Assembly (NCBI GenBank): GCA_001687465.1
Contig: LVLI01000118.1
Coordinates: 62,001 to 126,000 of the forward strand
From: Halocafeteria seosinensis
Lineage: Eukaryota
DNA length: 64,000 nucleotides
Direction: 5' to 3'
Each line of letters opens with the position of its first letter. The stretch's first letter is position 1. The translations under genes were made by a program, and so were the position numbers. Below the pieces are notes generated by a model that was not told the origin of the DNA, made no database searches, and saw only the letters and a program-made list of their open reading frames with translations. Shown piece after piece: positions 2,107-46,967 of the stretch.

Positions 2107-5100
2107 ATGGCTGAAGATGAAGGCCATGTCATTTGCCCCTCCATTGACGCCGTCTACCTCAGTCAATTACGGCGCATCATTCATACAGCTACATATCACG
2201 TGTCTGATATAAGCCCAGGATCTGCTCAGAGATTGCTCGATAAAGTAAGTCTCTACCAGTTCTTGTATCTGCTGGCTGGTCTTTGGTTTACGCTCTGTAT
2301 GTGTGTACCAGCTCGACCAAGGGGGAGATGACCAAGTCTCACAGAGAATTGGCGTCGTGAAGCGCTGTCTGGATTTGGTACTATGTTTGGAGGGCAAACC
2401 AGGGTCGTCAAATATTGTCCCTGGTGGAACAAGAATCAGGAAACCGAATCGAAGAGACATGGAATCGTCGCAGAGAATGGAAGCGCGATACTCACGAATG
2501 GTTCAGCAGCAGCAACAGGAAGCGAAGCACGACAAGACTCCCATACTGGATTGGTTTGATTATACTCTCGGTCTTTTGACGGTATCCTTTTATGACAGGG
2601 ACCAAATTTTCCTTCAGAATTCATCAGTCATTTGCGCTAATGTAAGTCATCCTTCCAACTTTACAAAGTGGGTGAGATCCGTTTTGAGTCGAAATCGGAA
2701 AGGATACCCTCTGTGGTGTGGTGATGTATCGCTGGATGGCCCAATATTAACAGTTATCAGAGATTCTATCACACGACAAGGAGCACCCGAATCTGCCAGA
2801 CTTGACGACGAGAACAAAGCAAGTAGTCGATCCATACAGCTTGCAAAGTTGGGGGAAGTTATATCCTCGAAGTTTCGGAGACGACTCTCCGGGCACATTG
2901 ATCTTTTAACTTTAATGTCATTTGTTGAAGCGTATCCTCAGTTTCAAGTTATCTCAGCAAGTACTAAGTCAGAAGTATCCGTAACGAAAGTGCTACAAGG
3001 TTACTGTGAATGTGGTGCTCCCCACAAACCTGCCGTGACATCAAGATACCAGCGTCGTCATCTTTCTCAGGTTTGCTCCCGAACCCTATCCAAACTCAAT
3101 GTCAGATTTCGACGATGGATTCGGAAAACCCAACTATACAAGTCTCAATTATCGTTTGTTGCTGCGGATATGCCGAACGAAGGATTCGTTTCCTCAGCGT
3201 GGAGTGGCTATGCTGTCGATAGTGAAGATCACACTGCCTGTTTCAGCAACGACTATTCCCGTGCGACGGAAGACACGAATGAGCTTAGTCGTATAAGAAG
3301 TCGATATCGCCGTCCTTTTGCAAACAATTTCTCGGAACTTCTTTTACCTCAGCATATTTCCGAATATGTTGCTTCCGTGAGTAGTACCGCACAATCAGAG
3401 ACATGGAAAGTCATGAGGTTACAGCACTATTTTGCATCGCTGGCCTTCTACTGTTCACAATATGTAGGACGTTCAATAAGTGTGACTTTGTCTGAAGGCA
3501 AATACAATGTCGCCTCTGTTTTGGTGATGAATTCATTTTTGGCGGAAGCATACGATAAGAGTTCCGGCATAGAAATTCCTCTTCAGACATTTCCTTTTGC
3601 TACCTTGAACCGGATGGTGGACTTCATCTTTCAGGAAAAGTGGCTGACAACAGCTGGGAACCACTCATCCGATCATTTGTTGAAGTTGTGCCAATACAGG
3701 AAAGAGGACAACAGCAAGCTGATGTGTTGTTGCGTTAGCAGAGTAGGTGACAGTCCGACGTTGACGCAGGATGTGGCATCCGAGTCTCTTGCGCAGAGCA
3801 TGTCTACAATAAAAGGGCTACAAACGTTTCCATTGGAAAAGAATAAAGATGACATTGATTGGAGAGTCTACCTTCTCTTGGTTTATTGCGCTGTTACAAA
3901 ACTCGCATCGGAAAATTCAAAGGATGGTATCGGTGTAAAGCTTAGGCTACGGCAACTTAGGGGCTACCTCAATGATAGAAAAATCAAGTGTCCCGGAAGC
4001 TTACCGGGTGTTCGAGAAGACCTTGTGAAATCACTCACATTTACATTTATTATGGATTCGTTACCGTTCGTAGAGCTACATCAGGAACAAAAGCCATATA
4101 CAGTTGAGTTAAAGCAGCAACCGCTTCGCTTGGGTCGTGATCTGAATATTATGCTTGAAGCATCGAGCGATGAAACTCAATTGCGCCACGCAGTATATTC
4201 CGAACTACCGAACGATGATAAGCAAGTAATTGAAGAATGGTTTCAGACACTTTGCCGGCAACTGCTGCTACTCTCCACTCCTCTTTTCCAGGATAAACAT
4301 AACATCGAAAATGTTAAAAAAGTTGCTTTAGAGCGGGTAAGAAACATTGATGCTAGAGGAGGCGAACCACTCTTCCTTGACGATATCGGCGCTTCAAGTG
4401 TGGTCTTGGTAACTTTAGTACAATCGCTCGAGAATTCCGAAGCGCGCACGTGGTTAAAGTTGAGCAGTGTAGAGGAGACATTACAAGGATCCTGTCGTAT
4501 AACATTTCCACGGGACAGGAAATTGGCAGATTTTATACACAATTATTGCCACCGTCGGCTTGAAATCTGTGAAGAAAAGAACGAAGCTTTCGTTCGATCT
4601 CGCCCGCTTCACTTTTCTTCGGACTCTGCCACATTTCTACCAGGCGAAATCTCTGTGAAGCCTCCAATGGGAGAGCAAGACGTTCTTGATACATTTTGCG
4701 GCTTTTTAAGGAAGCTCCGCTTGGATGGAAGCCATGGCGTCTTCATTGAATCGTTATTATCACTTGCACTTGGAGGAGAACTCGACATGAATGCTTGGGC
4801 TAATGTATATGAGTGGGTGACACAACAGCCATGGTGCCATTTGTCGTTTCCCACGAAATCCTTCTGCTCAGCATCAGTGGTATTGTTTTCTGAACATGCG
4901 CTGAGTTCTGTACCGCAGTCGTTTCGTGAGGTTGGTAGAGGAAGTGGCGGTGAACCGAATGCAACTTACGAAGGCGGCCATGCGACGGAACAGACTGTTC
5001 TCTCTTCCACTGGTTTACCTTCGAGATATTATATTTATGGGGAAGGAGTCGGTATTGAAGAAGATCTCCATCACGAATTCAAGGGAGGTTTTACAGGTGG

Positions 5101-6208
5101 TGTTCACAAGGCTATACTAAACATTGCACCTAGATACGTAGTGGCGTACCTGAATGCCTCCGGAGGAACGCTGTACTTTGGAATCACTAATGAAGGCACT
5201 GTTCACGGGGTAAAACTCTGTCGTGCAGATAAGGACGCAATAAATTTGGCGAAGGACTCGATAGCGCAGGTATGTATTGTATTCGCTGATTCGGTGGGAG
5301 TTTTATGACTGATCTACATGAACTTGGTTCTGTGTTTGCGCAGAGAATAGGGCCTCAGGGAGTACTTTACCTAATAGACCATCCTGTTTTCATGCCCGTC
5401 TTTCGCAGGCTGTCCCACGCGAGTCAAGACGGCAGTTACTTTGAGGGACTACCAAACACTTATGTGATCGAACTGAATGTTAGCGCCAGTCCGAACCCTA
5501 GTGTACTTCACTATGAAATACGATCCAACGTCCCTAAGCGTTCGGGGAAGGACATCAAAGATTCAGCATATGTTTACTGGGTACGACAGGCGGCTAGCGT
5601 TCGCGCCATGAGCGACCCGCAAGAGATCGCGGAGTGGGCATTTGGTAGAGGAAGAACCTACGGTGGTGCTACAGATAGACATAGTCTGCATATCTCCCGA
5701 TTGAACGAAGCGCCGACCAGTCTTCCCGGTAATAGCACTTTACAAGAAACGTCCACCACGACGAATGCTGAGACGAAGTCTTCTTTGCCTTTATCCCCGG
5801 ATGAGAGTAATCCGCAATATCGAGAAGTTGACATTGCGCTTGCCCCGGAACACGGGGTTGCTTGGCAAGTGCCGTCCGATAAAAGGCTCAAAGACAGCTT
5901 TGGTAGCAATACAGTGCTGACTCTACGATTATCTCAAACTCCATTGAAGAATGTAGGTGCATTATTCCGCAAACATTATCTGAATCAACTTTATTCACTC
6001 CTGGTTGTGTCCACAGGGAGTTGGACTGGTCGTAGAATCGTTAGGTGGAATTCTATGTAAGACCCAGATTATTTGCTCGGGTGCACTACTGTTGGAAGTA
6101 AATGGCGAAAGCGTGGAGAAACTAAGGTTGAATAAAATCCGGAAAATTCTGGCTCCCGGGAAGATAAGAAGACTTAGATTTTTATCACCCTTGCCTCGAG
6201 AATCGTAG
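2107..6208 (+). CDS. ~1298-aa protein with winged-helix/LOTUS-like repeats, a Schlafen/AlbA_2 domain and a C-terminal PDZ-like region; exons 2107-2244, 2312-5269, 5344-5952, 6017-6208
   Basis: Three phase-0 GT-AG introns join four ORF-track fragments in frame. AlbA_2 motifs: EEDLHHEFK, YVVAYLNASGGTLYFGITNEGTVHGV, YVIELNV, YWVRQAAS. C-terminal LLLEVNGESV..L..IRKIL resembles PDZ. Confidence 0.8.
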
Positions 6209-11302: not shown

Positions 11303-14300
11303 ATGGAGAAAGAGGGGGAATATAGCGCCCAAGATACTGAGTTTCTACGGGCTATATCAGCTCTTGCTGATATCCATTTGAGTATTCAACCTGCTCAAAA
11401 GAAAAAGCTTTTCGGTCTTTATAAGCAGGCCATGGAGGGGGATGTCGGAGAGTCTCCACCGGCTAATAATGTGATCGAAAGACGTGAATATGAGGCCCGC
11501 GTTGGCTTCCGCGGCATGAGAAAAGAAGAAGCGAAGCAGCAGTATATTGATACTGTCGACGGATTAGTGAAAGAGTTACACGGTGGAGACAGTCGTGGGA
11601 TCCAGGAGTATTCTACGACGATCGATGGGGAAGAGAAAGCAGGTGATGAAGCCGAGGAAGAAGGAGAAGATGCCTCCGACGGCAATGGTGCCAGCATACC
11701 ACCAGGGGAACATGTCATGCGGCGAATATCGGATGCGGTCTTTCACGAACGTCCAGAGGAGCATGAACGATCCGACAGGCCTCTCTCTAAGGAGGGTATT
11801 CTGTACAAACAGAGAGACGTCCGAAGTGTGTGGGCAGAAAGGCTTTTTGTACTGAAAGGGAAGAGCCTGTCCTACTATCGAAGCACCAAACAGAAAGAGC
11901 CAACGAAAAAATGGATTCTTGGCTCTACCTGCAAAGTGCAAGAGCTGCCACGAGAGTTCTCCAAGTCTATGATAAAAAAGAAGTACGGCAAGTTTTTCCC
12001 CTTTGCCGTCTCCCAGCACGACATGGTTCCTCCAATGCGATTAGCAGCAGCCTCCAAAGATGAACGGTATTCTTGGATGAAAGTTATCCGTCGCGCAGCG
12101 CAATCGACAGCGGATGGACCCGCCACTCCTACCAAAAGGAACGAAGGCACAAGCGTCCCATTTTCTGACCGTCCTAACGGTACTGCGAACAAGGATAACA
12201 AGTATGCATACACCCATGAAGAGACGAACGTTGTGTCAAACGCTGAGCAAACAAGTGCAGAAATCGTTGATTCACCAATGTCAGGTGGAAGCGAAGCGCA
12301 AAATGAGGTATATCATTGCACCCTGGAAGAAATTGCGGCCCCTTATCCTCCAGAACCGTACACTAAGGACGCACAAAAAATGATGAATGATTTACAGAAA
12401 CTTGAAAAATCAAAAACAGAATGGAAGTACAGCAAAGAAAGGAAAGGAGTATATTGTTACCATGGAACCGGAGATCTCGCCGGTGCGAAGGGGACTGGAT
12501 TCGTCAATTTTTCACGCCGTGCAATACGAGACATGCTTGTCGATCTTGAAAAAAAGCCTCTTACAGATAGTAAATTTGACGATGGTCGTGTGATTGAGCG
12601 TTTGGACTCCAGATCCACCGTCACATACATGCGATACAAGGCTGTGATGCCAACTTCGGCGCGGGACTTCTGTAACTTCACCCACTGGCGTGTTGCTACC
12701 CCTTCGGAGGAAGAAGGAGGTACCTTGTATATTGCTGCCAAGAGTGTCAAACACCCCGAATGCCCCGAGGATAAGGATTGTGTACGAGCAGACTTGAAGA
12801 TCGGTGGGTGGGTAATCCGCCCTATCAAGGGGAAGAAAATTGCAGAGGAACGAGCCGCCGCGAGATCCAGAGGAGAGGATCCCGGACCATGGCCAACCGA
12901 TGTGGATATTGATTCTGAGGGATGCGAATGTACTTACTTGGTTTTAATCGATCTCTGTGGCGACATACCGGGTTTCGTCGTTGGGATAGTTACTCAGCAA
13001 CAAGCGCTTCTCGTGGCTGCTTTGCGTGAAGCCTTAGAAAAAGAATGGAAAGGAAAAGACTCGGAAATGCGGCGAATTCCAACCATTCATAACTTTGACA
13101 AAGATGATAATCCTCCGGTTGTTGCCCCTGCAAAGTCGGGCACCAAGAACCCAGGTCCCAAGAAGTCGGAAACGGAACCGGCGGGAACACTCAAGGATGG
13201 AGGAGGAGTGCATTCACAACAAAGTAGCAATGCTCCGGAAGCTGTAGGAACCGAAACCTCAGACTTAAACATACCCGGTTTGACTCAACCTCTTCCGATC
13301 GAACGGCCGCCTCATCAAGTCTCTGTATTTAGTGCCTTGGTTCTCTTGGTTCCGGCAGTGCTGGTCTACGCCTACGGTGAAATGCCATATCACTACCGTG
13401 AACAGTACCTCACTCCATTGAATTTCTTAATTTTCTTAGGCGTGATCTCGATATTCTGCTTGTTATTGTTTCGACGTCTCTGGGTCGGACCCTCCAATAT
13501 GTCTATTCGGAGAAAATTGACCATCGCCACATGGACCGCCCCGCAAGAAGGTAGGCTCACCCGTTCGTGACTAGTTCCTCTCACGATGGTGGTGACGCTT
13601 TGATTCTTTACTGGTTTGCAGGGAACATCTATGGCGCATTATCAGTGGATGTAGGGAAGGCGCGGCAGTACATCGAGGACGTTCGCACAAGGACAGGAAC
13701 GAAAGTAACAATGACCCATTTAGTGGTCAAGGCACTGGGTACAGCGCTCAGAGCATGTCCAGCGATAAACGGGTACGATACTGTCTTGCGAAAGGATGCC
13801 ATTGGCAATGTTTCATTACCTTGCTTTTCTCTTACTGCGATTACAGAAGAATTGTTGATAACGAGTACATTGAAGCTGGGCGAGTTGATGTGTCATGCCT
13901 GATCAATATCCAAGCTGAGGGAGATTCGTCGCAGCAGTTTCAAAGCCAACGCAAAGCAGACTTGGGCAATGTAAAAGTAACTGATGTGGATCAGAAGACA
14001 GTCGTAGATATTGCTCAGGAGCTTTCAGAAAAGGCTAAGAAACTACGAGCGGGCAAGGACAGCGATTTCGAGAAGACGAAGACTGCGTTGAAGGTGCGTC
14101 GGTACTACTTTTATTTCAATTCGGCGGGACTAGATTGATAGGTCCTGTAATCCTCTTGTGAACAGATGCTTCCGGTTGGTGTACTGAGATACGTAGTATC
14201 TACTGCCGGCTACCTCGGGTCTCAGCTAGGGTGCACAATACCGTTCCTAGGCGTTCGACCGTATCCTTTTGGAACTGCATGCGTCAGCTCGATTGGATCC

Positions 14301-14570
14301 CTAGGCCTGGATTTCGGCTGGGCACCGTTTACTCCCTTCGCTAACGTCCCCGTGTTAATCACTGTTGGTGCCATAAAAGATTCGGTGGTCGCTGAAAAAG
14401 GCTCGCCTGTTGTACGGCCCATTATGATGATAAGCGCTACACTAGATCACAGATATATGGACGGTTCCCAAGCGGCACTCCTCGGAGATGTTTTCAAGCG
14501 TTCTTTGGAGAATCCTTCTGAGGTAATGGAAAAATCCTCACCACCAATAGGCTCCAGCATTGGTACGTAG
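11303..14570 (+). CDS. 1016-aa fusion: acyl-CoA-binding (ACBP) + PH + START + TM + 2-oxoacid-dehydrogenase E2-type acyltransferase catalytic domain; exons 11303-13550, 13622-13772, 13847-14093, 14166-14570
   Basis: ACBP LFGLYKQAMEGD...GMRKEEAKQQYI; PH KEGILYKQ...WAERLFVL...ERYSWMKVI; START SARDFC...DCVRA...GGWVIRP...IDLCGDIP; E2 VTMTHLVVKA, GTACVSSIGSLG, ATLDHRYMDG. Three GT-AG introns (71-74 nt) keep frame; total 3051 nt. Confidence 0.9.
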
Positions 14571-14587
14571 AAACTTATATCATATAA

Positions 14588-15766
14588 TCAAACGCCATCA
14601 TACTGGTCTGAAAGTCTATCCCTGGCACGCTTCTTCTCTCGTAGTTCTTTTTGTATTTGAGAGACACTCCGCTTGTCTCTCCGAGGGAACATCGGCTGTA
14701 GTGTTTCTGCTTCTCGTGCATGTTCGTTCATGGCTTCTTTGGCTTTTAAAGCATCTTGCTTCTGATACTTCCTCCTTTCTTTTGCCTTTTGCGCAAGCTC
14801 TTCTTGCTGTTTCCGTATCTTTTCTGCTTCGGCTTCCCTCAGCTTTTCCTCTTCGTCTTCCTCTTGTTGCTCTGGTGGTGGATGATCCGGATGGAAAATG
14901 ATTACATGGCGTTGATCTCCCGCACCTTCAGACCTCGTGAGTAAACCGAGAGCTTCAGCCTCATCATGAATATAGTATCTCCAAAATTTATCTGTCGGGG
15001 GCATGCGGAGGATGTATCCATCACGGGGAAAGCTAGCCTGCCCTGTCCACCTTCCACACCACATGGTGGCCACAGAGGTATTTAAACCCATGCATACTAT
15101 TATATCGGAACCGATTCCACACAGAACCAGGGGATCCTTCAACTTTTCCGTGTCAATTACTTCGCAGTCTGCTGTTTCTTTTGTCCTCCTATAAGCTGAA
15201 TCAACCAAAAAATTGTTCAGTACGTATTGTAGCTTCTCATCGCTACGAGCTGAATAGCGCGACCCATGTCCCGCTTTTCCCTCTAACACCTCCTGGCACC
15301 TGTCTTTAACCACTCGCTTGAATAATTTGATCGCCTGCTGTTGTCTTGCCTCTGGTGTCTGCGGAGGCAGAGCCCTGAGCTTCGGAAGTTCTTTCGTGGC
15401 GGTGCTCGNACTGCCACCACCNCTACCCCTGGCTGATTGTACGTCGGACTGAGGAGCAGTAGCAGCACGTTTCAAGTGCTCAATCTCATTACTCGAGAGC
15501 TCCGAAGGTGGTTCATAACTCGAAACCCCTCTGGAAATATCAAAGAAGTATATTTTCCCGGTGGAACGCGATACTGCTGCTTTCCAATTCCCGATGACTA
15601 AGCCCTCTCCTGTTCGATTTCCGCTTCCACTGTTAGGAACGGTGCTTGATGAACCTTCTTGGGTGTTCTGCTGGTTACCAAGTGCTTCTGTGTCATCGTG
15701 ACGAGTCCTTTGAGCATCATAATGACAACTATTCTCAGCCTTGGTCGCCGACGGCATGTTCTTCAA
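14588..15766 (-). CDS. SPAG7: SPAG7-like R3H-domain protein with an N-terminal WW domain
   Basis: WW: NWKAAVSRSTGKIYFFDISRGVSSYEPP. R3H: PPTDKFWRYYIHDEAEALGLLTRSEG..RHVIIF. C-terminal RRDKRSVSQIQKELREKKR resembles the SPAG7 tail. A possible in-frame intron near 15030-15110 is unresolved. Confidence 0.7.
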   Translation of the reverse strand: MKNMPSATKAENSCHYDAQRTRHDDTEALGNQQNTQEGSSSTVPNSGSGNRTGEGLVIGNWKAAVSRSTGKIYFFDISRGVSSYEPPSELSSNEIEHLKRAATAPQSDVQSARGXGGGSXSTATKELPKLRALPPQTPEARQQQAIKLFKRVVKDRCQEVLEGKAGHGSRYSARSDEKLQYVLNNFLVDSAYRRTKETADCEVIDTEKLKDPLVLCGIGSDIIVCMGLNTSVATMWCGRWTGQASFPRDGYILRMPPTDKFWRYYIHDEAEALGLLTRSEGAGDQRHVIIFHPDHPPPEQQEEDEEEKLREAEAEKIRKQQEELAQKAKERRKYQKQDALKAKEAMNEHAREAETLQPMFPRRDKRSVSQIQKELREKKRARDRLSDQYDGV

Positions 15767-15944
15767 CCTCTTGTTCTAGCCACCTCACGCATTAAATATC
15801 AGCTAACCTATCTAGATTCTAGCCATATATTGTCCCATACCAACATATCTAACTATTCCTATTGCTTTTAATCGATTTGCAGGCTCGAAAACACGCCGTA
15901 TGAGAAGTGAACGAATTGTTTGCTGTCTTCGCATGAAGGCATAA

Positions 15945-42081: not shown

Positions 42082-43969
42082 CTAGTCATAGCGGCCCAGC
42101 AGGCCATCGATGAATGCTCCATTCAGACGATGTTCCCTCTGAAAGTTTGCGTATTCGTGTACGCGCAGCTCAACGTCGCTTACAGACGATCTGATGAAGA
42201 CGTCATAGAGTAAGTAGCCACAGCCGGTGCGTCGAATATCCATGAGAGATATGCGAAAATCACCAGTACAACTCACCCACTTCGGTTTGACCATATCCAG
42301 AGTGACTAGCATTGTCTTGTCGATAATTTCTTGGGAGATCATAATGTTGGATTGCATTAGTTTCTGTCTGTAAACCCATTCCAAGTCGGACCTGCTCAGG
42401 TAACCATCGTCGTCGAAGTCCAAAATCCGGAACCAATACCCGATACTGTGGACACTCATTGCATCTTCATGGGCAAAGAAGAACAAAAGAAATTTTTCAA
42501 AGCCAGCCCCATTCCCCGTTAGCGGAAGAACAGTATCTAATATCCTCGGATGAAGATCAAGATTCTCCACTAGTGTCAGGCTATCCTTGGTGATGATTGA
42601 TTGCTGGCTCCACTCCCCCGCCTTCTCTGAAACAAGAGCATTGCAAAAAGTCCCATAAATTGTCTCGAATCTGACGACGTTAAATGCTGGTAATTGGGAC
42701 AGCCGATTCACGGCGCACTGGTAAAAGATATCCACTACATTGCTTTGAGACAGCTTGTGTAAGGTCGTGAATTTGGTCGACACCCCTTCAAGAGAAGACA
42801 GTATACTCACGAGTACATACTTGATATAGGCTTTTCGCTTCGTAGGCTGTTTTCTAAGGGATGCTAAGTCAGGATGTCTGTCAATCAGGGCCTCGATGAA
42901 TGGCTTTAGATGCCTCCGATCAATTCTTTCCCATTTCCATTCCTCGGCAATTTTGGAACATTGGTATATTTCGTGTCCTTGACTTGTTTCTAGTGACAAG
43001 ATTTCGTCCTTTTGTGGCTCATGAATCAATTTAAGGAACTTTTCTCTTGCATTTGCACTGCAAAAATCGTCTGTGCAAAATCTCAAGAAATCTCTGAGTC
43101 CTATTCGATCATTTTCTGAAGAATTTGGGGGCTCACTATTCTCATCTTCATCCTCTGGGATCCATGGAGCTTCTCTAAATTCTAGCACCTTCTCTTGGCA
43201 CAATTGTTGAATAACGGACTTGTATTGCTTGATTCGTTTGAAAAGCACAACTCCAAAATATGCAGGGAGACGGCAGTATTGCTTGACTAGATCGCGGAAG
43301 CCCTGACACGTGGAGGAAAGCCGCCAGGAGTTCTCCCGAAAGACGGTCAACACAAACTTTGGTATATCAGTAAGATATCTCGGAACGCAAGTTTGTTCTG
43401 ATGGAAGTCCCGCGGCTCTCGGGTAAATTCTAGTTAGTTCGCGCCTGGCAACACAAACGGCCTCAATACAGCTCGTAAGTGTTTCATGCAACATTTTGGT
43501 GGTAGCACTTCTTCGTTTGACTAAGCAATGCAAGTCGGCATTCAAAAATGGGCGATTTCTGGTCGAAGGTATGATGCCAATTCTCATGTGTGTTCGCGCT
43601 TCCGCTCGATCCTGTAAAATACAAAACAGCGGCATATGTTGGAAAACGCACATGGAAAATCATGGCTAACGCCTTCTTTACCTTGCTGATAGAGACCATC
43701 GATTCCAGTACAGCCGATGACTGACAATCCACGACGTCGTACACGAATAGGACTGGCCACAGGTCAACCGGTGATCCGAGGTGTTCCGTTTCTTCTTTGA
43801 GTTCTTCTGAATTCTTGGCAACTTGGAGTATCAGAGGTAATGTTTTTGCAGCCTCCTGGTAAAGCGGTATGAGCTCCGTAGAAGCGAACAGGATCACCTG
43901 AAGTACACTCTCTCCCGAAGATGTCTTCGTCTGCATACGTGAGGAAACAGGCCGGGAATCGGACGGCAT
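42082..43969 (-). CDS. PP2A B''-like (PR72/PPP2R3-family) EF-hand protein, paralog A; exons 43969-43682, 43611-42082
   Basis: CRLPAYF, LKPFIEALIDRHPDL, FEKFLLFFFAHED, SIGYWFRILDFDDDGYLS, DMVKP...ISLMDIRR match B'' motifs in divergent form. Confidence 0.82.
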
Positions 43970-44812: not shown

Positions 44813-46967
44813 CTATTCGGCTGTCGCTGCTGGAGTCACTGGACAAGCAAGGAATTGACTAGGTGGTCGCGTTGGAATAATTACTTGCCTTTCAAGCGGC
44901 TGCAATGACGAAGAAACAAACAAATCAAATACCACAAACCCCGCTCCACTCTTCCTGATCTCAAAAGGGGATATGCGGAACTCTCGAGAAGATTGGTTGG
45001 TCACAGGATGAATAGCATCCATAAGCTTGCACATCGCGTTATGCCCCAACGTCGACGCTTGTTCAGAGGAAACACCGGCTGCAATGAGCTTCTCTCGATA
45101 AACCACCTCGAGATCCTGACGACTAAGATACCCATCATCATCTATATCCAAGGCTCGGCACCAATATTCCACACTAAGGTCGCGCATGCGGTCTTCTTTC
45201 GCTAGTAAGAACCACATGTAGTCTTCAAAATCTAATCTTCCCTGTTCACTAGTATTCAGAAGCTTAACATTGGAACGAAAAATTCTTTCCAGCACAGTGT
45301 GAGTTATGGGAAGACTCATTGCGGACTGTAGTCCTTCACGGTGTATCGTTGCATTGACTTCCTGCGTCTGTTGGCTACAGCCGGATGCTTGGCTATTAGA
45401 CAAGGCTCTCTGAAACACCTCGTGTGCCTCTTCGAAATATCTTAGGCTAAAGGGTAATACCTGGGACAACTTGCATGTAGCACACTTATAAAAGAGGTTA
45501 GCAACTCCTGACTCCCTTAGGTGCCGAGTGGGAACGCATCCCTGGCAAAAGCCGTTTAAAGAAGCAAACACACTGGTCAACACACATGTAACATATCTGC
45601 TCTTGCGCTCGGCATCCTCCCTAAGTTGTCGAAGATCGGGATGCCTTTCCACCAGTGCTTCTACCAAAGGTTGAAGATCTTCCATATAAACTCGATTCCT
45701 ACTCAAAGATGGCAGTTTTCCTCGAGTTGACGAGGAATCGTCGGTTTCCATTTCCAAAACCGTTTCGCAACTCGGTGGTATGACAGCTCTAAGAAACCTT
45801 GACATGCGCCCGCTGTACCTGACCGCTGGGGTCCAAAACCTTAGAAAGTCCCTCAAACTGATAGCAGAAGGATCCTCGGTGCTTTGCTTCCTGGTATTTG
45901 GAAATCCGGGAACACTGTCTAGACTGGTGGGAGCAAGAGACCCTCGCTCTATTAGTTGCTGTGTTAATGAGCGATACTGTTGGATGCGTCGAAATACCAA
46001 GCTGTCGAAATAGGCAGGGAACTTGCATGCTTGCTTCAAAAGTCGCCGAAAACGTGGATCTTCTGCATGTAGCTTTTCGCTTCCGTCTCCTCCGAATGAT
46101 ACGACAACCTCCTCGGGTATCTCCGCTAGGTATGATGGAGTCACCTCGCTTACTGGTGTACTCGTGGGATCTTCGACATCCTGGGCATTCATATCTACTT
46201 TCTCAATTGAGGGCGACTGAGACATTGAGATCGTGCGAGAGGGCCGAGGAAGCTCTCCACTTCCTGATGGGCTGGTGGCATCCACTTCGCCGACGTTCGG
46301 GGTCTCAATAGGTTGCAATGAGCCCATACCTTGAGACATGTTTTCCCCATGTCTACTATCGGAATGATCGCCACCTGGGTTATTAATCTGGGATTTTAGG
46401 CAATGAAGCACTACACCTCTGATATCATGCTCCGTTCGCCGAACGAGAACTCGCTCGTTAGGATGCCAGTCGTTTCTACCTGTGGACGAAATGACCCACC
46501 GTGACGCTGGAGAAACGTTCTCCTGTCCAACATGTTCAAAAACCATAAAAAATTGAATGCGTCAGAACAGCTGTATTCACCATACTCAATCTTACCTTGA
46601 CCATCTCTATCATCTGTGGAATGGCATATCCGCAACTTGGGTCGTCAATTTCGAACAAAAACACGCAGTTGGGTGGAACAGACTCAAGTAAGCATCGCAG
46701 TTCGTTGACCGATGATGCCCCTACAAGGCATACGGAGAGGTCACGGCAAACATGTGAATAATATTGTAAGAGGTCGCGGGAGGAAATAATGACCGCCGTA
46801 GGGGTATTCTCCTCGTTTATAGTTCTCGGACTTGCTTCTCGATGCGGAAACGATGGTAAACACGTGGCACTGCGGCTGCCGCTGAGGCGCTTCTCCTGTT
46901 TCGAAGCTGTATCTGACGAACCACCAAAGTTCAGCAAACGCTTAGCAGTATCTCTTAGTCTCCCCAT
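44813..46967 (-). CDS. PP2A B''-like (PR72/PPP2R3-family) EF-hand protein, paralog B; exons 46967-46596, 46522-44813
   Basis: CKFPAYF, DLQPLVEALVERHPDL, LDFEDYMWFLLAKED, SVEYWCRALDIDDDGYLS, ISPFEIRKSG. Intron position matches paralog A. Confidence 0.85.

Follow-up and report, generated by a model that had tools for sequence, protein, structure and literature searches.

A single polypeptide joining lipid-binding domains, a predicted membrane anchor and a putative E2-type acyltransferase domain in Halocafeteria seosinensis

Introduction

The catalytic domains of dihydrolipoamide acyltransferases (E2p, E2o and E2b; PF00198) work through a histidine that acts as base and a serine or threonine of a T/S-N/S motif that serves as the oxyanion residue, with the N-terminal face forming the lipoamide side of the enzyme. 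Here, we analyse a gene of Halocafeteria seosinensis located at positions 11,303 to 14,570 of a 64,000-nucleotide stretch of DNA (contig LVLI01000118.1 of assembly GCA_001687465.1, positions 62,001 to 126,000; hereafter, the window), the 1016-residue product of which, P0001, places such a catalytic domain behind ACBP, PH and START domains and two predicted transmembrane (TM) helices. Leaning slightly beyond an even judgement, and mainly from sequence comparison and structural models, we read it as a putative membrane-anchored acyltransferase that would use acyl-CoA to acylate a hydrophobic acceptor, with START handling the latter.

Several described systems resemble parts of this protein. With E2p, E2o and E2b it shares the fold, the DHRxxDG motif and the oxyanion residue, and it may also share the trimeric state. 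It differs from them in the lack of lipoyl and E3-binding domains, a hydrophobic insert of ~39 residues, Trp744, a TM anchor, its position in a clade apart from theirs and NCBIfam scores that fall far short of the cut-offs. Folds of membrane lipid acyltransferases include MBOAT, PlsC/DGAT2, LCAT/PDAT and WS/DGAT, and in WS/DGAT and PapA5, lipids are acylated by CAT-superfamily proteins with a His-x3-Asp arrangement, which are two-lobed monomers with an HHxxxDG motif. Unlike WS/DGAT, P0001 reads DHRYMDG and has no WS/DGAT Pfam match, and its displayed Foldseek matches, the search by which distant CAT-superfamily folds were compared, are E2 cores. CERT (STARD11) and STARD10 likewise place a PH domain ahead of START; CERT is soluble, bound to the endoplasmic reticulum through an FFAT motif, and has neither an enzyme domain nor a TM segment, whereas P0001 has two TM helices, an enzyme domain and no match to a simple FFAT pattern. 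GRAMD1/Aster and the yeast Lam/Ltc proteins combine a PH-like domain, a StARkin domain (as GRAM and VASt) and a C-terminal membrane anchor and lack a catalytic domain; P0001 resembles them in all three parts, but the GRAM and VASt Pfam families are unmatched in it. ACOT11 and ACOT12 (Them1) share with P0001 the fusion of an acyl-CoA-using enzyme to START, but that enzyme is a hot-dog thioesterase and is accompanied by no TM hairpin, PH or ACBP domain. Finally, the excerpted text of one source describes AbmA4, Agg4, ChlD3 and QmnD3 as stand-alone E2-type tetronate O-acetyltransferases that acylate a hydroxyl, AbmA4 having 280 residues (PMC5819245). As proposed for the domain of P0001, these stand-alone E2-type domains have been repurposed, a likeness drawn from their description rather than from their sequences; unlike P0001, they are described there as soluble enzymes of secondary metabolism encoded in gene clusters.

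Lipid trafficking in stramenopiles is called largely unexplored in the excerpt of a 2026 review (PMC13235166), and the excerpt of another source describes a stramenopile DGAT1 that carries a PH domain and lists, as a reference title, an engineered ACBP-DGAT1 fusion (PMC8100218). Among the titles and abstract beginnings of the open-access literature, no paper on an ACBP-PH-START-TM-E2 architecture was found; term searches gave no occurrence of START, pleckstrin or 2-oxo in the main text of a review of ACBD proteins (PMC7057175) and no mention of the architecture in PMC7168155. The protein is real, conserved and apparently uncharacterised.

Results

One spliced polypeptide with five parts

The open reading frame at 11303-13570 of the forward strand and three downstream pieces join into a spliced sequence of 3051 nucleotides that encodes 1016 residues and has one terminal stop (Table 1). 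Because 580 other GT/AG combinations in the intron regions also leave an open frame, the splice model was judged on outside data. Four public runs cover the stretch (at most three samples from one study, none recorded as RNA); the contigs of three of these, X2, X3 and X4, omit precisely the three intron segments and read across the junction 13550/13622, and the X1 contig is unspliced and possibly the origin of the window itself. Apart from one position, the EukProt protein P0001, which comes from a transcript assembly, is identical to the splice product (1015 of 1016 residues), and the difference, Q29L, matches an A>T change at 11388 that is also present in X3; as P0001 possibly derives from the same data as the runs, it was not counted as independent. 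Intron positions are shared by two relatives: P0012 breaks after TWSAPQEG, at intron 1, and P0020 carries 23 additional residues at intron 3. One spliced polypeptide, which an earlier note on this DNA had assembled from four reading-frame fragments and three GT-AG introns, is thus confirmed, and transcripts that end near 13570, with the E2 part transcribed separately, did not appear.

The sequence cluster of P0001 has three members, the others being P0006, which is the P0001 sequence with an eight-residue N-terminal insertion, and P0005, an 850-residue product of intron 2 retention that lacks the catalytic half and its histidine. A transcript of the latter kind would encode an ACBP-PH-START-TM protein without an active site, and this form may reflect either regulated splicing or an intermediate that is not yet fully spliced. 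A convergent gene for an R3H-domain protein ends 17 nucleotides from the stop of the P0001 gene, and the spliced X2-X4 contigs span both genes, which suggests overlapping 3′ ends.

In P0001, Pfam recognises ACBP (residues 13-85, 43 bits against a cut-off of 28.3), PH (48 bits), START (50 bits) and 2-oxoacid_dh (77 bits against a cut-off of 23), all above the curated cut-offs, and hydropathy peaks begin at residues 673 and 705. The AlphaFold2 model, built with 30 aligned relatives, has all four domains folded (mean pLDDT, the predicted local distance difference test, 77.5) and low-confidence linkers on both sides of START (residues 271-344 and 588-661); its predicted TM-score (pTM) of 0.43 means that the domains have no fixed arrangement in the model. 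Pfam, hydropathy and AlphaFold2 agree on the order ACBP, PH, START, two hydrophobic helices and E2 fold that had been read from the letters alone, and the intact DHRYMDG lies where it had been placed. The absences recorded in the earlier note hold as well: no lipoyl or E3-binding Pfam family matches P0001 at E<=0.1, and the first 40 residues, with 5 R/K and 6 D/E, are in composition unlike a mitochondrial presequence. Lipoyl and peripheral-subunit-binding Pfam domains are also missing from 35 of 35 relatives at E<=0.001. With two helices, a short loop between them and a basic flank after the second, the N- and C-terminal domains of the modelled protein probably lie on the same, cytosolic side of the membrane.

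The catalytic domain belongs to a lipoyl-less family

Foldseek matches the catalytic domain to E2 cores with E values of ~1e-16 to 1e-11 at 15-23% identity; H977 and S923 align with the corresponding residues of SucB and AceF, and the PDB titles of matched structures name Ser558 and His610 as residues studied. Against the NCBIfam E2 models, however, the best score is 49 bits, well short of the cut-off of 445. A careful tree was built from 61 rows, with the insert columns, 11 unclassified rows and two sister-family rows left out; its ordinary enzymes are bacterial, none being a mitochondrial E2. In it, the 9 ordinary E2s separate at a branch support of 97/99*, and their grouping with P0001 is rejected by the approximately unbiased (AU) test (p=0.011); a quick tree, which takes in all 74 rows, gives the same result. 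The nesting of the domain among ordinary E2 subunits, which had been named, jointly with an absence of lipid acylation, as an outcome that would refute the proposed enzyme, was not seen. The nearest named relative in the E2-domain tree is P0017 of Cafeteria roenbergensis.

P0001 carries the pattern of its family: a start of the form RRxxxxxTW, an insert of ~39 residues, FG.....S.G and DHR. Its identity to 41 family members is 29-49%, with 14 invariant columns and a score of 360 bits against the family hidden Markov model (HMM), and R737, W744, D976, H977, R978, D981 and G982 are invariant in 42 of 42 rows. In the tree set, His977 is kept in all 10 START fusions that retain DHR (class A, below), all 20 short relatives and all 11 bacterial relatives, and Ser/Thr923 in 9/10, 20/20 and 11/11, respectively. 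The family profile meets solved E2s in two pieces, the gap between them amounting to 48 profile positions against 9 residues in the E2p of B. stearothermophilus; the insert, not found in the solved E2s that were compared, is helical in the AlphaFold2 model and exceeds every other measured segment of the domain in hydrophobicity (mean H 0.34-0.41 versus -0.32 to 0.30 in the core helices). By these sequence comparisons, the domain is not an ordinary E2 but belongs to a family that lacks lipoyl domains and is marked by the hydrophobic insert and an invariant tryptophan: its putative mode of working is E2/CAT-like, but membership among the E2s fails on the missing lipoyl domain, the separate clade and the NCBIfam cut-offs.

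The nearest relatives of the catalytic domain are stand-alone bacterial proteins of ~260-300 residues that are annotated as E2. They occur in 59 of the 121 genomes searched of Myxococcota (the phylum of genome G001) and in 12 of 151 of Actinomycetota (the phylum of G003), one of the 12 being an unpublished genome, and ordinary E2s are present alongside family members in G001-G003. What the earlier note had proposed as repurposing of the E2 fold stands insofar as the fold lies outside ordinary E2s with its histidine and oxyanion serine kept; the repurposing itself probably did not take place in this gene, because bacteria have the lipoyl-less domain as a family of stand-alone proteins. At 50 of 52 bacterial loci there is no E1, E3 or lipoyl neighbour. 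Lipid-related neighbours are scattered, namely an acyl-CoA ligase (L016), a fatty-acid hydroxylase (L038), acyl-CoA dehydrogenases (L040, L057 and L061), GDPD (L062 and L064), MMPL (L062) and PlsC (L011). Some of the 52 loci are nearly identical to one another, and 40 have flanks of only ~1.5 kb; neighbouring frames were chosen by a GC heuristic, and 78, 84 (of 89 listed) and 34 of them were scanned, many without a match, such that neighbours may be missed. A search of plasmids gave no match. At L044:973-1848 and L050:660-1631 lie members of a further bacterial family of E2-like proteins without a lipoyl domain; they have a similar insert, carry glutamate in place of the catalytic histidine (DERxxDG) and form their own clade in the quick tree.

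START fusions and short TM forms in eukaryotes

Among the best 150 representatives of a full HMMER scan, 129 match the family HMM and 23 have at least 550 residues; 21 of these 23 were analysed, P0047 (partial domain) and P0115 (no START match) being left out. Besides P0001, there are thus 20 other fusions, and the layout recurs in several protists. Ten fusions keep DHR (class A) and include P0017, P0028 of Mucochytrium quahogii, P0022 of Aphanomyces stellatus and P0015 of Chromosphaera perkinsii; PH and START are both recognised by Pfam in eight of them, START only in P0022, and both only in the alignment in P0018. P0028 has the full ACBP-PH-START-TM-E2 layout, with the motif DHRYMDA. The other 11 (class B: P0042, P0056, P0061, P0063, P0070, P0073, P0082, P0098, P0117, P0134 and P0145, of which P0061 is from Epipyxis sp.) form a clade at 100/99* and retain the insert, the canonical basic residues of PH and the KW/Y..W residues of ACBP. 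The diatom lipid-droplet protein PtACBP is a possible further member of this pseudoenzyme clade. Class A requires two changes on both trees and is one clade on neither, so that a single origin of the fusion is neither established nor ruled out. Database names of members are automatic, for example, ‘PH domain-containing protein’.

TM segments directly precede the catalytic domain in the fused as well as the short eukaryotic forms. The latter, of ~300-430 residues, have upstream hydrophobic helices and no START, although some may be fragments; in the ESM Atlas, clusters of 317-333 residues with few recorded members have Ciliophora and Myxococcota as their commonest taxa. Some family members depart from the common layout. 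P0016 has two START domains ahead of the E2-type domain, and in P0033, P0035 and P0044, the START region is matched in several stretches, with three START matches in P0033. The fragments P0161 and P0162, deposited under the name Symbiodinium sp. KB8, fall into the 90% cluster of P0013, itself grouped with stramenopile-like sequences, and are possibly a contaminant of the Symbiodinium sp. KB8 assembly.

Predicted trimer

A prediction with three copies of residues 700-1004 scores 0.88, against 0.00 for the best of three controls, with pLDDT at least 78 and at least 74% of contacts shared between runs; since E2 trimers have been solved, the predictor may be reproducing these known structures. In the calibration of such scores, the mark was passed by 21 of 30 solved microbial pairs and none of 23 microbial single chains, and in eukaryotes by 17 of 29 pairs and none of 30 single chains; of the eukaryotic cases that lack an earlier solved relative, 1 of 7 passed. 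This calibration is for two copies, unlike the three-copy job. At the predicted interface, W744 contacts H977 and R978 of the neighbouring subunit, and the interface further includes insert residues 878-893 and residues 731-757, which start three residues past the second TM helix. Because family-specific W744, the insert and the residues that follow this helix line the interface, we infer from the model that the acceptor entrance faces the membrane.

Accessory domains

In P0001, the catalytic residues are, as far as the sequence goes, intact and ACBP and PH eroded, the reverse of class B. The excerpt of a review states that YKQA and KWDAW are needed for acyl-CoA binding and names five residues, Phe7, Tyr30, Lys34, Lys56 and Tyr75 (PMC9866449). 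YKQA is present in P0001, and class-B ACBPs retain the Lys and the last Trp of KWDAW. In the basic motif of PH, K169 and R180 are retained and position 178 is Ala, where most relatives have Arg.

The fold of START is a typical one. Its best PDB sequence matches, to STARD10 (E 8e-5) and CERT (3e-4), are weak, and by fold, CERT, STARD10 and STARD4 match alike in Foldseek, STARD4 being as good by TM-score; the acceptor class, therefore, cannot be read from START. The label ‘CERT-type’ that had been given to the layout fits the presence of PH and START and does not extend further: P0001 has TM helices, a crude search with the simple FFAT pattern found no match in 30 of 30 rows, and the fold points equally to the three START proteins.

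Discussion

The reading that we favour, a membrane-anchored acyltransferase, can be cast as a mechanism. The enzyme would be a trimer with active sites between subunits and a TM hairpin with both ends in the cytosol; His977 would deprotonate the acceptor, which would attack the CoA thioester, with Ser923 steadying the oxyanion. The second TM helix is predicted to continue straight into helix 735-743, such that the face through which lipoamide enters an ordinary E2 would point at the bilayer. In place of the docking site of the lipoyl domain, an entry for a membrane-embedded acceptor would be formed by Trp744 together with the hydrophobic insert. START, on flexible linkers of ~75 residues, might fetch the acceptor from another membrane or remove the product; PH would act as a weak address label, and ACBP would be optional and probably dispensable in this copy.

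Several observations weigh against this reading. The pTM is too low for the model to give a contact between START and the enzyme. In class B, PH and START are present in 11 of 11 and the TM segments are kept, but His977 is found in 0 of 11 and there is no Ser/Thr923, so the architecture can persist without acyl transfer. An amphipathic nature of the insert found no support above the level of the core helices, its moment being 0.28-0.32 versus 0.29-0.48 in these. The idea that ACBP feeds the acyl donor, also put forward in the earlier note, was weakened: KWDAW reads EYEAR in P0001, Tyr30 (rice numbering) is Phe, three of the five binding residues are kept (F14, K41 and Y81) with F37 and E62 changed, and ACBP is found in 2 of the 10 His-intact fusions against 7 of the 11 His-less ones, counts from which N-terminally short gene calls may conceal some ACBPs. 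The domain is probably an optional part and, in P0001, a non-essential one. The R-x-x-W-D motif of the STARD10 START is KPLTD in P0001. At two near-identical actinomycete loci (L010:5965-9579 and L011:5965-9579), the bacterial gene lies between DUF3052 and the E1 gene of pyruvate dehydrogenase (PDH; aceE), directly upstream of E1, an arrangement not found at 11 other actinomycete loci examined, and no recurrent partner or lipid pathway was found among bacterial neighbours at the 52 loci. Known E2/CAT channels accept short acyl groups, and a long-chain donor is therefore not implied; neither donor length nor acceptor class can be read from the present data.

Part of this evidence would suit a protein that is mainly a membrane-anchored lipid-transfer or tether protein of the PH-START-TM, GRAMD1/Lam-like kind, in which the E2-type domain would act as a platform for trimerisation, acyl-CoA sensing or membrane binding, with any catalysis secondary. 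The linkers are long and flexible, and 11 of the 21 fusions, without His and Ser/Thr, keep PH, START, TM, insert, the PH basic residues and the ACBP KW/Y..W residues; yet it is ACBP and PH, rather than the catalytic residues, that have eroded in P0001, and every one of the 41 family rows outside class B in the tree has the histidine, which leaves this account unlikely. Unlikely to a similar degree is an active enzyme that carries out acetyl or short-chain transfer, or acyl-CoA hydrolysis, with START as a switching lipid sensor, the role that START has in the thioesterases ACOT11 and ACOT12. The chemistry of such an enzyme overlaps with that of the favoured acyltransferase, and a hydrophobic insert and TM hairpin beside the active site fit a membrane acceptor; on its side are the degenerate ACBP of P0001 and the bacterial and short eukaryotic members without START, which imply that the enzyme can do without it. 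The characterised stand-alone E2-type enzymes are, in the excerpt that describes them, also acetyltransferases (PMC5819245).

We consider it quite improbable that the enzyme keeps the thiol-transacylase chemistry of E2 and acts in trans on a thiol or protein acceptor, be it a free lipoyl domain, acyl-carrier protein or membrane protein. The catalytic set is E2-like, and the position upstream of PDH E1 at L010 and L011 would suit such a role; but E1, E3 and lipoyl neighbours are found at 0 of 40 loci and 0 of 10 others, the genomes encode separate full E2s, and in the predicted interface the N-terminal face is filled by W744 and the insert. Hardly credible, finally, is an artefact in which an ordinary E2 gene and a separate ACBP-PH-START-TM gene beside it were falsely joined. 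The unspliced frame does stop at 13568-13570, and RNA-like contigs also cross the neighbouring convergent gene, so contig continuity alone is weak proof; nevertheless, the artefact is refuted by the spliced contigs with their junction in three of four runs, the full-length transcript-derived P0001 and the 20 other fusions, and the missing lipoyl domain and the AU test against ordinary E2s also speak against it.

A bolder extension of the acyltransferase reading, which we put forward tentatively and hold to be less likely than not, is that these proteins make up a class of membrane lipid acyltransferases, hitherto undescribed, with a trimeric E2/CAT core. Such enzymes would be stand-alone in Myxococcota and some Actinomycetota, TM-anchored in protists and START-fused in stramenopiles and an ichthyosporean, where they would ferry a lipid across a contact site and acylate it, and would have decayed, in one clade that includes a chrysophyte, to a pseudoenzyme functioning as a lipid-transfer or acyl-CoA-sensing tether. 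If this is true, a trimeric, membrane-anchored E2-type enzyme would add a fold to the lipid acyltransferases, and a bacterial family that is now labelled dehydrogenase E2, present in nearly half of the searched genomes of one phylum, would gain a testable function. Lipid transfer and modification in one chain would bear on the directionality of contact-site transport, and the His-intact and His-less versions of the same layout make a natural comparison pair.

Features of the window

Table 1. Coordinates of the putative acyltransferase gene, its domains and other genes in the window
Feature	Position	Strand	Remarks
Exon 1	11303..13550	+	residues 1-749 plus 1 nucleotide: ACBP, PH, START, two TM helices, beginning of the E2-type domain
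Intron 1	13551..13621	+	71 nucleotides, GT-AG; splicing it out removes the 13568-13570 stop
Exon 2	13622..13772	+	E2-type domain
Intron 2	13773..13846	+	74 nucleotides, GT-AG; kept in transcript-derived P0005
Exon 3	13847..14093	+	E2-type domain
Intron 3	14094..14165	+	72 nucleotides, GT-AG; same position in relative P0020
Exon 4	14166..14570	+	residues 883-1016 and stop
ACBP four-helix domain	11327..11578	+	residues 9-92 (model helices 9-92); YKQA kept, KWDAW degenerate (EYEAR)
PH domain	11786..12100	+	residues 162-266; K169 and R180 kept, basic residue 178 replaced by Ala
START domain	12359..13045	+	residues ~353-581 in the model; Pfam 407-558
Predicted TM helix 1	13325..13381	+	residues 675-693
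Predicted TM helix 2	13415..13486	+	residues 705-728, then basic flank (FRRL...IRRK)
First helix of E2-type domain	13496..13550	+	RRKLTIATW; family-invariant R737 and W744 (W744 at 13532-13534)
Family-specific helical hydrophobic insert	14049..14267	+	residues ~868-916, across intron 3; not in solved E2s
Ser923	14286..14288	+	aligned with Thr of E. coli SucB and Ser of AceF, T/S-N/S motif
DHRYMDG with catalytic His977	14445..14465	+	residues 976-982
R3H-domain gene	14588..15775	-	convergent with the P0001 gene
Open reading frame	2249..5305	+	1019 codons; C-terminal Schlafen/AlbA_2 match
Open reading frame	42085..43659	-	EF-hand_13 match
Open reading frame	44816..46561	-	EF-hand_13 match

Elsewhere in the window, the Schlafen/AlbA_2 match of the 1019-codon frame has an E value of 1.6e-8, and the two frames with EF-hand_13 matches lie in tandem and probably arose by local duplication.

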